From Candidatus Poribacteria bacterium (GTDB lineage: Bacteria > Poribacteria > WGA-4E > WGA-3G), in assembly GCA_965214095.1 (NCBI GenBank), contig OZ243938.1:4224001-4288000 (forward strand): 64,000 nt of DNA, given 5' to 3'. Positions 49,374 through 54,912 of the stretch are shown here, one piece after another. Numbering within the stretch: position 1 is the stretch's first letter; each line of letters starts with the position of its first letter. Below the pieces are notes generated by a model that saw only the letters and a list, made by a program, of their open reading frames with translations, was not told where the DNA came from and did no database searches. The position numbers and the translations under genes were made by a program.

Positions 49374-51347
49374 ATGAGGACTTTATCAGACAAAATCACA
49401 CTTAATCTTGACGATGGTGCAGAAGTGTCCGTCAAAGGCTTCATCGCGCCGATTGAATACACACAATACAACTACTATGTCAAATGGGATGCATTGGCAA
49501 ATCTGCGCGCAACTGAACCAGAGAAACAGTATCTCACTTCAATTTTCACTGATTTTCTACCCAGTTGTAACATTGCTGTCGGTGATTTTTGGGAAGTTAA
49601 GCAAGATGGTGTATTGGAAATACTAAAGCAACTTCATCCAAAACCGAATGTAGATATGCACCTGAATGCGGGAGATTCTTGTGGCCTGTGGGCATGTCTC
49701 CGCGCATACAATGATGAATATGCCGACATCATGTTTCGTCTACATGCTGAATTCCAACTAAAAAACGGTTGGTTCACACCATCTCAATTTAAGGGTAATC
49801 TAATAATTGATCGATGCAATGGTAGAATTGCCAGTTTTAAGATGTATGTTCCAAAGGGTGTACTAAATTTTGATGTCAACTGGCATACGACATTGGAAGG
49901 CGATAGCGAACCTTCATGGTGGACTGATATCGGATACTGTCCACAAATGGAACTCCGCGCAGGAAATGATGCAGGTCCAAATAGTATAGAATTCACGGAA
50001 TTCATTTCACAGGAAGATGCAGAGCACAGACTGATACGTTGTTTTTACAAATCACAGCAAATCAATTGGGTTTCCTTGGAGGAAGCACTGAAATTGGCAC
50101 CAACCCTACAGAAACCGATCCATGCTATTTCAATAGATGGACCACTGGCAGACGAATCCTGCTGAGGGAGTGGTAAAAGTTTGAGGGCAGGTGTCCTCTC
50201 TAATGAGCAAATTATTACATTCTTGAATGAAAACTTCATCAATACATGGGTGCCTAATGCAGAATTGGGACGAATCCGAAGTTTGCGAGAACCGATAGAA
50301 AAAAGACGATTACAAGAAGGCAAAACATTCAACAAAAACCATGAGTTAGCACAAACTATCATTAAGGGATGGAAAACCGGTACGAAAAAAGGTTCGCCGA
50401 TGGATTGTTTCGTCATATCACCAGAGTTTGAACTGATGGGTAGACAACTCGTGAATGACTTGGACGATGACCGTAGAAATAGAGCATTACCATCAGAAGA
50501 GGCTTATTATCTTACATTTCTCAATGATGCATTGGAAGGAAAACAACCAGGTTTGGGGAATGTTGTTCTGACCTATGACAATCCTTCTCACGAGTTATCG
50601 GATGTTATTAGAACTTCCTCAGAAAACAATCAGAATCTAACTATTGTCATGATTGATGCCAGATCTTGTATAAACGGAGGTATATTGATCATTGACATTC
50701 TAATGGGCAGAGATGATGCAGAAGGTGCATTTTATTTATGTGACGGTGATTATATACTTCCCACGGATAGAGAAGTATCGGAGAATGATAGTCTTGCATG
50801 GACTTGGGGTGAATCCGATGAGACACTTCAGATAAAGCATCAATTCAACAGTGGACAATTTTTCAAGTTAATTGCTACACGTTATTGGGATGAGGATATT
50901 CCTTATATCAATGCATTTCACGCTAAAATTTCTGTAGAAGAAAATGCTCCAACTGGTATGAAGATTGTTCTTGATAGAGAACAACCGAAACAGAAGGCAT
51001 TAGAGACTTTTCGTGCACCTGGACATGGATATCAGGATTATACTGTTGTCAATATTGATACATTAGCGTTTGGTAATGGTGGAATACTAACAATTGAAAT
51101 TCAAGTTGGTAATGCAAAAGCATGCGGGTCGTTTGATCTGTTTGATGATGACACAAAACTGCCGACAAAAGGTACACCAAAGGAAGCACTCAGTTCTGCA
51201 TGGGGAATTGAACCCGGGAACAATGGTACAATCACACACGGTTTTGAGAAAGGTAAGGTCTTCAAGCTTGGTGCTACAGGCGACTGGTTTAGTAAGAAGG
51301 GAGATATAAACGCTTTTCACGCGATTATTTCTGTAAAGGAAAAATAA
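49374..51347 (+). CDS. Selenoprotein N-like protein 1 (657 aa; UGA 50163-50165 = Sec264; SCUG); two C-terminal repeat domains
   Basis: Track ORFs 49374..50165 and 50181..51347 are in frame and joined by TGA GGG AGT GGT AAA AGT, giving DESC-U-GSGKSLRAGVL; SECIS-like hairpin follows. Confidence 0.88.
50183..50198 (+). promoter_or_regulatory. Putative bacterial SECIS apical stem-loop 1
   Basis: GAGGGC-AGGT-GTCCTC starting 18 nt after the UGA. Confidence 0.72.
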
Positions 51348-52883
51348 ATGAATACAACAAGCAAAATATCGATTAATATAGAAAACGAAGAAAAAGTAAC
51401 TGTCAAAGGCTACATCGCACCTATTGAAGACATGAAACCTAACTTTCACGAAGAATGGGATGCGTTGGCGAATATGCGTGTAAACGAACCAGAAAAGGAA
51501 TATAACACAACGGATTTCCAAGCCTTTCTTCCCGGTGAACCTGTTGCTATCGGTGATTGTTGGCAGATTGAAGAAAATGGGGTATTGGAGCTTCTCAAAC
51601 AATTGAATCCCAATCCGAATCTGGATATGCATATTAATATTGGGGATTCCGCTGGATTGTGGGCATGTCTACGTGCATATAACGAGCAACATGCTCATAT
51701 TGTGTTTCGTATTCATGCAGAATTTCAATTAGAAGATGGATGGTTCACGCCTTCTCATTTTGCGGGAGATCTTATTATTGACCGGAACAAACAGGATGTC
51801 GTTTCTTTTCGTCAGTGCGTTCCTGAGGGAAAATGGTTTGATGTAAATTGGAAAAAAGATAAAGACGATCCAAACCATTATTATAGTACAGCTTCCGGTG
51901 TATGTCCAAAAATTGAACTATATGGCGGTTTGCGAGATTTACAGAAAGATACAAAATTTGCTTTATCTATTACACAAAAAGAAGCAGAAGAGAAACTAAA
52001 AAAACAATTCTACAAATCAGAGCAAATAAACTGGGTTCCCTTTGAGGACGCAGTAGAATTAGCACAGGCACATCAGAAACCGATCCATGCATTATCTATT
52101 GATGGACCGCTTGATGATGAAGCGTGCTGAGGCAGCGGAAAAAACTTGAGGGCAGTTGTCCTCTCCGATGACCGAATTATCAATTATCTAAATGAAAATT
52201 ATATCAACACATGGATACGTACTATTGAGTTGAGAAACATGCGTGATACATTGGGATATCAACAAATACACCCCTTGGCGTGGGCTATCATCAGTCATAA
52301 ATGGCGTAGAGGTCCTGTAGACTCTTGGATCATATCCCCAGAACTTGAAGCAATAGGACATGTCCCGATCAATGAATACCTTGGAGAAAACAGACGTGAA
52401 GACGGCACACTTGAAAGTGATAATTACTTGTTGTTTCTCCAAGATACCTTATCAGGAAAACTGCCTGGATTAGGGAATATTGTTTTCACTCCCGATAATC
52501 CATCACATACAGTATTAGACGTATTTCGCACACCAGAATTTGGACATCAGGATTATACCGTTGCTGTTATTGATACGACTGCATTTAAGAGCAAAGGCAC
52601 ACTGACTATTGATATAGAATTGGGCAACGATAAAGCGTATGGTTCATTCTTTTTGCTTGATGCAGACCATAAACTGTCCTTTGATGCTGATAATAAACGA
52701 CCAGATGGTAGCATGTTTGATGGTGCACACGACGTTGGTTGGTATGATCCGTGTGAAATAGGACAGATGACACATCAATTTGAACAAGGACAAATATATA
52801 AACTGGTTGGTATGGGATGGGCATCTAACGAAAAGGGAAGTATTAACGCATATCGAGCAAAAATCACTGTTGAGGTAGAATAA
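51348..52883 (+). CDS. Selenoprotein N-like protein 2 (511 aa; UGA 52128-52130 = Sec261; ACUG); one C-terminal repeat domain
   Basis: Track ORFs 51348..52130 and 52146..52883 are in frame, giving DDEAC-U-GSGKNLRAVVL. Confidence 0.88.
52148..52163 (+). promoter_or_regulatory. Putative bacterial SECIS apical stem-loop 2
   Basis: GAGGGC-AGTT-GTCCTC at the same offset. Confidence 0.72.
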
Positions 52884-52884
52884 A

Positions 52885-54912
52885 ATGAAAATCAATCTAA
52901 AACTAAATGATAGCGAAAAAATATCAGTCCAAGGATACATAGCACCGATTGAATACACACAATACAACTTCCATGTTGAATGGGACGAACTCGCAAATCT
53001 ACGTGTTGCAGAACCTGAGAAGCAATATCCTTTATCAATCTTTCAATCTTTTCTACCATTGGAACCTGTTTCGGTCGGTGAATGTTGGGAAATTCAAGAG
53101 GAAGGTCCATTGGCTTTACTAAAACAACTCTACCCACGTCCAGTGCTGAAACTGGTTATTGATTCAGGGGATTCTTACGGTCTGTGGGGATGTCTACGCG
53201 CTTACAACGATAGGTATGCTGAAATTATTTTTCGTATTCATGCAGAATTTATCATGAATAATGGTAAGTTTACACCATCACAATTCGCAGGACATTTGCA
53301 AGTTGACCAAATTAAGCAGGAAATTGTGCATTTCAAGATGTATGTGCCTCCTACTACACTGAACTTTGATGCAGGTTGGACACGGGAAAATGAGGATACT
53401 TGTGCTGAAATCGGATATTGTCCAAGAATGGAACTATCTGCGGGGGATTCTGTCATTAAAACAGAATTTATTGAGTCAATACCCCAAGGCGAAGCGGAAC
53501 GTGCACTGATATTACGTTTCTACAAATCACAACAGATAAACTGGGTATCTTTGGAAGAAGCGATGGTACTTGCAACGACACAACAGAAACCAATTCACGC
53601 TATTTCCACCGACGGTCCACTTGCGGATGAGTCCTGCTGAGGGACTGGTAAAATCTTGAGGACAGGTGTCCTCTCTAATGAGAAAATAATAACGTTCTTG
53701 AATGAAAACTTTATCAATACTTGGGTTGCTAATGCAGAATTAGGACGCACCGGTAGTTTACAGGAACCGATTGCCAAAAGACGTGAACGTGAATGCATCA
53801 CCTTTGATGCCTCACACATCTTAGCAAAAGTAATTATGAAAGGATGGGTAAAAGGCTCACCTGTAGACTGTTTTGTTATATCGCATGATTATGAATTGAT
53901 GGGTGGTTTAGATTACAATGAGTTCCTTGATAACTTAGGGAGAATGCACGATTTTGATGCATACATGTCATTTCTCCAGGATTCAATGAATGGAAACCGT
54001 CCCGGTTTGGGAGATGTTATTCTTACGCCAGAACAATCATCACAAGAGGTATTAGACACAATATCAACTCCAAAGAAAGCACATCAGGACTATACAGTTA
54101 TCGGCATTAATACAACTGCGTTTGAAAACGGAGGCACGCTTATTATTGATTTCCAAGTTGGCAGAGATGATGCAGTCGGCTTATTTTTTCTGCTTGATGG
54201 AAATAGAAAAATCCCATCTGAGAAAGTTCCTGAAGGTATTGACCCAGCAGCATGGCACAGTCAAGAAAGTGATGAATATGAGAAGGCTCTTGATGCACTT
54301 GCTTATTGTTGGGGTGTATTTCCAAACGAAACCAGTCAACTAAAATACGATTTTGATAAAGGTCAACTGTTTAAATTATGTGTTACTGGAGATCAATGGG
54401 GTGGAGCCGGTGCAATAAACGCTTATGTCGCTAAAATAACCGTTGATAACAAAATAGATGTCTCATCGAAAATTGACAAAACTGAAGATGAAGAGGGTAT
54501 TGTTACTCCCATTTCAAGTGAGATAAACGTAGTCCTTGATAAATCACATCCTTCCAAAGAAGTATTAGACATTTTTCGTGCACCAGGAAGTGAGAAACAA
54601 GATTACACCGTTCTCAATATTGATACAACCGCATTTCAAGATGGTGGATTACTTTCTATTGACATACAGGTAGGTGGTGCAAAGGCTTACGGATCATTTG
54701 ATCTCTTTGATGAAGATGCGGAACTGCCAACAGAAGGAATTCCAGATGAGGCATTGGAATCTGCATGGGGAATTGAACCCGATACAAGTGATAATATAAA
54801 ATACCGTTTTGAAAAAGGCAAAATTTTCAAGTTAGGTGCTACCGGAGATTGGTATAGTAACAAAGGTGACATCAATGCCTTTCATGCCATTATTTCAGTG
54901 AAGGGAAAATGA
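52885..54912 (+). CDS. Selenoprotein N-like protein 3 (675 aa; UGA 53638-53640 = Sec252; SCUG); two C-terminal repeat domains
   Basis: Track ORFs 52885..53640 and 53656..54912 are in frame, giving DESC-U-GTGKILRTGVL. Confidence 0.88.
53658..53673 (+). promoter_or_regulatory. Putative bacterial SECIS apical stem-loop 3
   Basis: GAGGAC-AGGT-GTCCTC, fully Watson-Crick, same offset. Confidence 0.72.

Follow-up and report, generated by a model that had tools for sequence, protein, structure and literature searches.

Candidate bacterial selenocysteine insertion elements within three tandem selenoprotein N homologues of a Poribacteria genome

Three abutting genes with an in-frame UGA and a downstream hairpin

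We have analysed a stretch of 64,000 nucleotides (nt) of DNA, hereafter the window (NCBI GenBank assembly GCA_965214095.1, contig OZ243938.1, positions 4,224,001 to 4,288,000 of the forward strand), from a Candidatus Poribacteria bacterium that we take to be a sponge symbiont. Three adjoining genes in it encode homologues of selenoprotein N (SelenoN), each with one in-frame UGA at the predicted selenocysteine (Sec) position, and each UGA is followed at a fixed distance by a small hairpin. From the comparisons presented here we consider it highly probable that each hairpin is a bacterial selenocysteine insertion sequence (SECIS) placed inside the coding region. The features of the three genes, in window coordinates, are these:

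49374-51347, plus strand: gene 1, selenoprotein N homologue; 657 codons including one UGA predicted to be read through; open reading frames (ORFs) 49374-50165 and 50181-51347 are in frame; N-terminal domain, thioredoxin-like CU domain and two C-terminal beta-rich repeats
50163-50165, plus strand: in-frame UGA of gene 1, predicted Sec264; motif S-C-U-G-S-G-K, matching SC(U)GSGR of animal SelenoN in the protein alignment
50183-50198, plus strand: putative SECIS hairpin of gene 1, GAGGGC-AGGU-GUCCUC; 5′ arm 50183-50188, loop AGGU 50189-50192, 3′ arm 50193-50198
51348-52883, plus strand: gene 2, selenoprotein N homologue; 511 codons; one C-terminal beta-rich domain
52128-52130, plus strand: in-frame UGA of gene 2, predicted Sec261; motif A-C-U-G-S-G-K
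52148-52163, plus strand: putative SECIS hairpin of gene 2, stem GAGGGC/GUCCUC, loop AGUU
52885-54912, plus strand: gene 3, selenoprotein N homologue; 675 codons; true stop TGA at 54910-54912
53638-53640, plus strand: in-frame UGA of gene 3, predicted Sec252; motif S-C-U-G-T-G-K
53658-53673, plus strand: putative SECIS hairpin of gene 3, stem GAGGAC/GUCCUC (A-U where genes 1 and 2 have G.U), loop AGGU

The genes stand in tandem on the plus strand and abut one another, with a stop at 51347 and start at 51348 between the first two, and a stop at 52883 and start at 52885 between the second and third. Their read-through proteins share the motif (S/A)-C-U-G-(S/T)-G-K, and gene 2 matches the family profile with 797.5 bits and one TGA inside the match. 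The hairpin begins at the 18th base past the TGA in all three genes, giving a spacer of 17 nt. An earlier sequence-only reading of this DNA had reported a hairpin behind each UGA, and direct reading of the window returned the same sequences at the same coordinates. It also bore out the statement that the hairpins differ at only two places: one loop base (G or T), and a G-to-A change in the 5′ arm of gene 3 that turns a G.U into an A-U pair while replacing Ala (GCA) by Thr (ACA). All three genes use TTG AGG ... GTC CTC across the hairpin; in the host genome AGG is the rarest arginine codon (7.2% of Arg), and CTC, GTC and TTG account for 15% of Leu, 22% of Val and 18% of Leu codons, respectively. 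A scan of the 5.25-Mb genome for TGA-N17-GAGGRC-AGKT-GTCCTC, as the sequence-only reading had proposed, recovered three occurrences, all in genes 1-3 and none beyond them; the same pattern reversed, as a control, had no match.

Agreement with the bacterial SECIS model

The prototype of the bacterial SECIS is that of Escherichia coli fdhF. The general model, due to Zhang and Gladyshev (2005) and reproduced in the Fig. 2 legend of PMC13188914, describes a loop of 3-9 nt, a stem of 4-16 base pairs (bp), a UGA-to-loop distance of 16-37 nt, a G among the first two loop positions that is usually followed by G or U, and a folding energy of -7.5 kcal/mol or lower. The hairpins of genes 1-3 lie within coding sequence, 17 nt past the in-frame TGAs at 50163, 52128 and 53638, and each has a 6-bp stem and a 4-nt loop (AGGU, AGUU and AGGU, with G at loop position 2 followed by G or U). 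The spacer of 17 nt and the arm of 6 nt place the loop 23 nt from the UGA, and 25-nt windows around the hairpins have energies of -8.9, -8.9 and -9.5 kcal/mol in genes 1, 2 and 3, all below -7.5 kcal/mol. In gene 2 the hairpin appears in both the minimum free energy and the centroid structures, and in gene 3 the minimum free energy structure is the hairpin alone, at -9.5 kcal/mol. The three hairpins thus agree with every sequence and structure criterion of the published model.

They resemble known bacterial elements in being stem-loops inside the ORF, right after the Sec UGA, with a small G(G/U) loop, in a genome that has selA, selB, selC and selD. They differ in that the consensus fold has no lower helix that includes the UGA, and in that their sequences lack similarity to any curated SECIS family of Rfam. 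A transcription terminator was also considered for the hairpin and was set aside, as no run of T follows the stem and the reading frame continues.

Orthologues preserve the stem

Of 176 genomes examined across the phylum, 131 carry the family; the number of scored copies reaches eight or more per genome, often in tandem, and almost all of the family matches among those listed contain exactly one TGA. From a scan of species-representative genomes that returned 323 relatives, 75 loci were kept (72 titled Poribacteria and three 'uncultured bacterium'). A further 18 of 21 metagenome loci were examined, L131, L145 and L146 being dropped because the match ends before the site, and TGA follows Cys in all 18. 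Forms with two cysteines (CC) were absent from the 75 kept loci, and the metagenome scan returned only Sec forms. At the loci of the phylum and species-representative genomes, the segments around the site comprised 123 distinct sequences, 115 with TGA and eight with a glycine codon; of the Sec forms, 106 distinct 57-nt segments aligned without gaps and formed the covariation set. Spacer length is identical in all orthologues so aligned, and in the 115 distinct Sec-form segments the reading frame continues through the TGA. On one metagenome contig (L147) a single base is lost between the TGA and an intact hairpin, giving a frameshift and further TGAs; this may be either a sequencing error or a young pseudogene.

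For the 57 nt after the UGA in the 106 segments, RNAalifold predicts the hairpin and no other structure. Paired cells make up 96.9% of the stem against 94.1% in shuffled alignments (0 of 500 shuffles as high) and 45-81% when partners are slid by one to three columns, and two-sided changes occur in three of the six pairs (21 cells against 7.3 in shuffles, again 0 of 500), with the proviso that the orthologues are related, so that the shuffle controls overstate significance. Counting from the U of the UGA, pair 24-33 is G-C in 56 segments, G-U in 22, A-U in 17 and something else in 11 (G-G, A-G or G-A), with no A-C; pair 25-32 is G-U in 54, G-C in 37, A-U in six, U-A in three and something else in six. 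A double change from G-C to A-U is seen in locus L037.

The full 6-bp stem is formed in 91 of the 106 segments; eight others form 6 bp or more once the register shifts by two bases, and the remaining seven have five of the six pairs. The shift, on the 3′ side, re-forms the stem where the fifth codon is GAG or GTG. A perfect stem of at least 6 bp is thus kept in 99 of the 106 poribacterial Sec-form sequences. The loop is AG(G/U)U in 113 of 115 Sec forms, the other two having ACGU, or CGUG in the shifted register where they pair, and the energy is -7.5 kcal/mol or lower in 93 of 106. The stems are preserved both by compensatory changes and by register shift.

A second class of hairpin was found in two distant groups, namely four short soil-type metagenome contigs (L127-L130), which are the closest relatives (44-49% identity) of a non-poribacterial query, P0130, and six divergent poribacterial paralogues (L159-L166). 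These encode ...(L/F)-R-A-G-P-L-S and form GAG(A/G)GCG-GGUC-CGCUCUC, a stem of 6-7 bp after the same 17-nt spacer, with different sequence and register. The alanine codon has changed from GCA to GCG and pairs with the proline codon. G28 and U30, again counted from the U of the UGA, are common to both classes.

Synonymous sites are constrained across the hairpin

Codon choice was measured as the entropy among sequences carrying the majority residue, relative to genome-wide usage. Relative entropy falls to 0.29, 0, 0, 0.32 and 0.10 at codons +7 to +11, against mostly 0.5-1.2 in the flanking codons -9 to -3 and +13 to +24. This drop upholds the earlier statement that the hairpin codons are fixed while nearby synonymous sites vary. 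Arg +7 is encoded by AGG or AGA only, whereas Arg +15 is mostly CGA; Leu +11 is CTC in 110 of 114 sequences, whereas Leu -6 and Leu +20 use four to six codons. Ala +8 is GCA in 105 of 105, and GGT, also within the hairpin, is frozen in 68 of 68. Constraint is already present outside the hairpin at codons -1 (TGC in 114 of 115) and +1 (GGG in 94 of 108), which indicates selection on the spacer context as well.

Homology of the proteins to selenoprotein N

Searches of the three proteins against Pfam, NCBIfam and PDB sequences gave nothing usable, the only signal being a sub-threshold match to T1RH-like_C (E 0.013), and in a protein atlas the database protein P0004 matched only an un-annotated Poribacteria cluster (score 0.78). 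A word-seeded search returned 111 relatives, some at a full length of about 557 amino acids and many as pieces of about 385 amino acids starting from the TTG that follows the TGA. With a profile built from 12 poribacterial proteins, a search of 1.84 billion representatives gave 815 hits, including two EF-hand proteins from the cnidarians Nematostella and Sanderia (E 3.5e-35 and 2.7e-33). Relatives of the second of these, from Sanderia, are named Selenoprotein N in UniRef, for example that of tilapia (2e-97). By BLASTP, the gene 1 protein (P0001) and tilapia selenoprotein N are 31% identical over 362 amino acids (E 2e-42), with the U of gene 1 aligned at the animal SC-U-GSGR Sec site. Single-chain bacterial Cys forms, C-C-G-S-G-K, also exist. 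By these alignments, the products of genes 1-3 are homologous to selenoprotein N in its catalytic region, without matching its full architecture.

The likeness to animal SelenoN extends to the motif (S/A)-C-U-G-S-G-(K/R)-x-L-R, to the conserved blocks FRIHAEF and LNExFIxxW, and to a predicted thioredoxin-like domain. The bacterial proteins differ in lacking the transmembrane-plus-EF-hand N-terminus, in having one or two extra C-terminal beta-rich domains, and in being associated with a bacterial SECIS instead of one in the 3′ untranslated region (UTR). Pfam gave no EF-hand hit in the proteins of genes 1-3 (P0001-P0003), whereas the jellyfish protein P0252 has EF-hand_6. A 3′ UTR SECIS of eukaryotic type was not found in 49300-55000 by Rfam, and the three genes abut. 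The AlphaFold model is of moderate quality (predicted local distance difference test score 63.7, with the N-terminal 100 residues under 50) and places the C-U pair between strand 246-251 and helix 265-271 of the thioredoxin-like domain. In Foldseek, where whole-chain TM-scores (template modelling scores) were low and only domain-level matches are usable, the thioredoxin-like part resembled Thioredox_DsbH-type structures (7tkv_B, 3ira) and the C-terminal part beta-sandwiches.

In an unrooted tree of 33 proteins the animal sequences group as a single clade (support 100) at the end of a long branch. A second clade (support 99) unites the Poribacteria with three unnamed bacterial Sec-form fragments, and other bacterial Sec and Cys forms lie around the two. 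This separation indicates that the poribacterial genes were not recently copied from a host animal. The sequence-only description of a eukaryote-like selenoprotein therefore needs to be narrowed: the homology to animal SelenoN stands, but the family is broad in bacteria and the animals form a clade of their own, which neither includes the poribacterial clade nor is nested in it.

Fusions to ECF (extracytoplasmic function) sigma factors (Sigma70_r2 + r4), with the selenoprotein-N-like domain behind, were seen in a Sec form (P0183) and a Cys form (P0125), which suggests a redox-sensing, anti-sigma-like role. In P0217 the selenoprotein-N-like domain lies behind leucine-rich repeats.

Selenocysteine machinery and other selenoprotein genes of the genome

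The host genome contains a tRNA-Sec gene (78.1 bits against a cut-off of 47) directly downstream of selB (C1:4987445-4989340; 355.5 bits), as well as selA (616.3 bits) and selD (C1:1272212-1273138; 361.4 bits), the last with a TGA of its own in K-C-A-G-U-A-S-K. TGA is used for regular termination too, closing 446 of the genome's 2226 long ORFs and gene 3 itself. By these profile matches the genome encodes selA, selB, tRNA-Sec and selD, and the organism can make selenoproteins. The selD TGA is followed by weak structure: by eye, some 4 bp enclose a CGGGU loop, and RNAfold favours different pairings.

Further selenoprotein genes emerged from a scan for TGAs that lie in open frames and are flanked on either side by coding signal; among them, AhpC/TSA (U-x-x-C), thioredoxin (U-P-Y-C) and HMA domains (U-x-x-C) were confirmed by Pfam. 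The AhpC/TSA genes carry hairpins of the form (G)CAACUC-G(G/U)(U/A)-GAGUUG(C) after a spacer of 14-15 nt, the thioredoxin gene GAAACC-GGU-GGUUUC after 17 nt, and the HMA genes (A/U)AGUGCA-GUC or GGA-UGCACU(U/A) after 16 nt. These hairpins are like those of genes 1-3 in their spacers (14-17 nt), stems (6-7 bp) and the start of the loop 21-23 nt after the UGA. They differ in their loops of three bases (GGU/GGA/GUU/GUC) as opposed to four, and in their unrelated stems (CAACUC/GAGUUG, GAAACC/GGUUUC and AAGUGCA/UGCACUU). The common features are the geometry and the G(G/U) loop, which is to say the general bacterial model.

The comparison thus yields shared geometry with the AhpC/TSA, thioredoxin and HMA elements and no relation between stem sequences, and the sequence-only proposal of GAGGRC-AGKU-GUCCUC as a lineage SECIS consensus is unsupported in that form, holding for the geometry alone. 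That sequence is specific to the family, its three genomic hits all being in genes 1-3, and it is partly dictated by the L-R-A-G/V-V-L peptide.

Three tandem AhpC/TSA selenoprotein genes (C1:4477030-4480000) have CarboxypepD_reg-like N-terminal domains and a U-x-x-C site, and a further AhpC/TSA selenoprotein gene (C1:4986072) terminates shortly before selB and tRNA-Sec. A coding-like segment, ...VDFEI(T/A)-TGA-TL(C/S)IGEVRKP(R/P)LP(W/G)..., recurs at six places outside the window (C1 near 339435, 535261, 704094, 1810259, 4721710 and 5126288). A strong 9-bp hairpin, GGCGAGGTT-AGGA-AACCTCGCC, lies 12 nt after each TGA, the copy at 4721710 being scored on the inner six pairs only. The repeat could be a mobile element in several copies, a stop with a structured repeat behind it, or another amplified selenoprotein family.

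Weighing the interpretation

By its rules, the hairpin is an ordinary bacterial SECIS. In the mechanism that we propose, it would fold 17 nt downstream as the ribosome nears the UGA, presenting G28 and U30 at fixed positions, and would be bound by the C-terminal domain of the genome's SelB carrying Sec-tRNA(Sec) and guanosine triphosphate (GTP). With the UGA in the A site, the tethered SelB would deliver the Sec-tRNA and the codon would be read as selenocysteine. The product would be one polypeptide whose thioredoxin-like domain has a Cys-Sec redox pair where its first helix begins. The same bases encode L-R-A-(G/V)-(V/A)-L, and codon choice would accordingly be set by RNA structure. The sequence-only claim of a bacterial SECIS inside the ORF is supported by the homology to animal selenoprotein N, by the place of the UGA at the Sec position of the SCUG site, by the agreement of the hairpins with the model in all its parts and by the compensatory changes that keep them in more than 100 orthologues.

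Several observations weigh against this interpretation. Folds of 60 nt show no gain in stability over dinucleotide shuffles (z -1.02, -1.58 and 0.01 for genes 1, 2 and 3), and a hairpin passing similar rules follows 75 of 1700 (4.4%) open-frame TGAs in the genome. Fold stability by itself does not exceed chance, and the evidence must come from comparison, that is, from conservation, covariation and synonymous-site constraint. Within that comparison, 13 of 106 orthologue hairpins are weaker than -7.5 kcal/mol, and the stem overlaps the invariant residues R and L, so that its conservation is partly protein-driven. All eight distinct non-Sec relatives, in which TGA is replaced by a glycine codon (GGA or GGC), retain the hairpin, and the expected contrast of a hairpin with UGA and none without was not seen. 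A cmscan search of 49300-55000 against Rfam gave no SECIS match at E values up to 10 (six chance-level matches), as is expected because bacterial SECIS elements share little sequence. Finally, SelB binding, Sec insertion and the redox role are proposed by analogy with the E. coli and Moorella systems.

The Gly forms merit a closer look. They are close kin of Sec forms, L020 and L021 being near-identical around the site. As judged from their sequences they are incapable of Cys-Sec redox chemistry, yet the frame is open and the hairpin is kept. Three of the eight have an altered loop (AACU twice and AGUC once) against two of 115 Sec forms; coming from few lineages, the difference gives only a hint of loop change where Sec has been lost. 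The Gly-form loci (L020, L022, L023, L025, L026, L027, L032, L034 and L035) mostly have a signal peptide, and L034 has lost the neighbouring Cys as well. One database protein, P0017, has Trp (TGG-like) at the Sec position.

The hairpin might instead aid read-through of the UGA or slow termination, in the manner of the selenocysteine redefinition element (SRE) of animal genes, with the SelB site elsewhere or a near-cognate tRNA reading the codon. Such an element does lie immediately 3′ of the UGA in human SELENON, according to the accessible text of two papers (PMC8704476; PMC12936836), and bacterial synonymous constraint sets in at codons -1 and +1, outside the hairpin. Nevertheless, RNAalifold reveals no other conserved structure in the 57 nt after the UGA, the G(G/U) loop and the UGA-to-loop distance match the SelB-dependent model, and the geometry is common to other selenoprotein genes of a genome in which the Sec machinery is complete; we therefore regard this alternative as improbable. 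Still harder to sustain is the proposal that the hairpin has no RNA function, arising as a by-product of the L-R-A-G/V-V/A-L-S peptide and of codons inherited by recent duplicates. The invariance of R and L, the hairpin in eight of eight Gly forms, the non-significant z-scores and the 75 hairpins behind 1700 TGAs would all be in keeping with it. However, synonymous sites are frozen only here and use rare codons (AGG, 7.2%), and at pair 24-33 AGA is found with U opposite it, never with C. Moreover, G-C changes to A-U on both sides (L037), and changes of V to P and V to E come with a synonymous GCA-to-GCG change or with a register shift by which 6 bp or more are regained. A by-product of the peptide is thus very improbable.

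The UGA could also be a real stop, with two genes at each locus and a hairpin serving translational coupling or mRNA stability. Public gene calls do split the family in this way, many entries ending ...DE(S/A)C or starting at the TTG of L-R-A. The break would, however, split one modelled thioredoxin-like domain between strand 246-251 and helix 265-271, and it coincides exactly with the Sec residue of animal SelenoN, a single chain, and with the second Cys of the bacterial CC forms, which are single chains too. The 'start' of the second half is merely the first TTG found by ORF listing, and the frame runs on past the TGA in 115 distinct Sec-form segments. We accord a true stop the least credence of all, as extremely improbable.

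Relation to the animal redefinition element

In animals the SECIS proper lies in the 3′ UTR and the SRE is accessory, whereas the bacterial hairpin would be the SECIS itself. The accessible text of PMC8704476 and PMC12936836 describes an SRE hairpin in the coding region of animal SELENON mRNA, right after the UGA, and that of PMC3541580 gives human disease mutations in it at G463, R466 and R469, with Sec at 462. At the level of the protein alignment, these three residues map to bacterial codons +1, +4 and +7. The two hairpins are alike in lying in the coding region just 3′ of the Sec UGA of homologous genes, and the codon for Arg +7 makes up most of the bacterial 5′ arm.

It is tempting to speculate that the bacterial SECIS inside the ORF and the SRE of animal SELENON are the same element by descent, although we think this rather unlikely. 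An ancestral SelenoN gene would have had a bacterial-type SECIS at codons +6 to +12, and under eukaryotic decoding with a SECIS in the 3′ UTR the hairpin would have been retained as an accessory recoding signal. If true, this would account for the strong hairpin adjacent to the UGA that sets SELENON apart from almost all other animal selenoprotein genes, and also for the myopathy caused by human mutations there. Descent of the SRE from a bacterial SECIS in this way becomes a testable question.

We found no literature on bacterial selenoprotein N selenoproteins or their SECIS elements, with the limit that supplements or the BSepDB list may use another name. In its accessible text the BSepDB paper makes no mention of selenoprotein N, the string matches all being 'selenoprotein name'. 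A 2026 review of prokaryotic selenoproteins names SelD, GPX, deiodinase-like, SELENOW-like and MsrA as families that eukaryotes have too; in the text accessible to us, selenoprotein N is not listed and neither a CUG nor an SCU motif appears. Neither 'bacteria' nor 'prokaryot' occurs in the accessible part of a 2026 SelN review. The hairpin marks a large mis-annotated selenoprotein family whose public gene calls are cut at the UGA. Selenoprotein N is the product of a human muscle-disease gene and its biochemical substrate is poorly known; the bacterial Sec, Cys and Gly variants and the ECF sigma fusions offer tractable selenoprotein N models.

Other features of the window

The C-terminal beta-rich domain occupies 50580-51344 in gene 1, 52480-52880 in gene 2 and 53990-54909 in gene 3, with one copy in gene 2 and two each in genes 1 and 3. 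Its pattern is ...QDYTV..ID..AF..GG.L.I.I..G...G.F.L......INAF.A.I.V. It has no Pfam match, and animal SelenoN is without such a domain; its Foldseek neighbours are small beta-sandwiches (PliG, pre-peptidase C-terminal domain and carbohydrate-binding modules).

In metatranscriptome run X1, a 6.1-kb contig from a relative about 92% identical spans the gene 2 UGA into gene 3; the contig is an assembly and its library may contain DNA, so that it proves neither transcription nor read-through. Run X6 gave no match.

The genes neighbouring genes 1-3 (aconitase-family subunits, PIN domains, ferredoxin, guanylate kinase, CoaBC and KsgA) gave no functional link. The large and small subunits of the aconitase-family dehydratase lie at 45545-46972 and 47720-48310, with a PIN-domain gene (47244-47660) between them, and a second PIN-domain gene (48648-49115) follows the small subunit.

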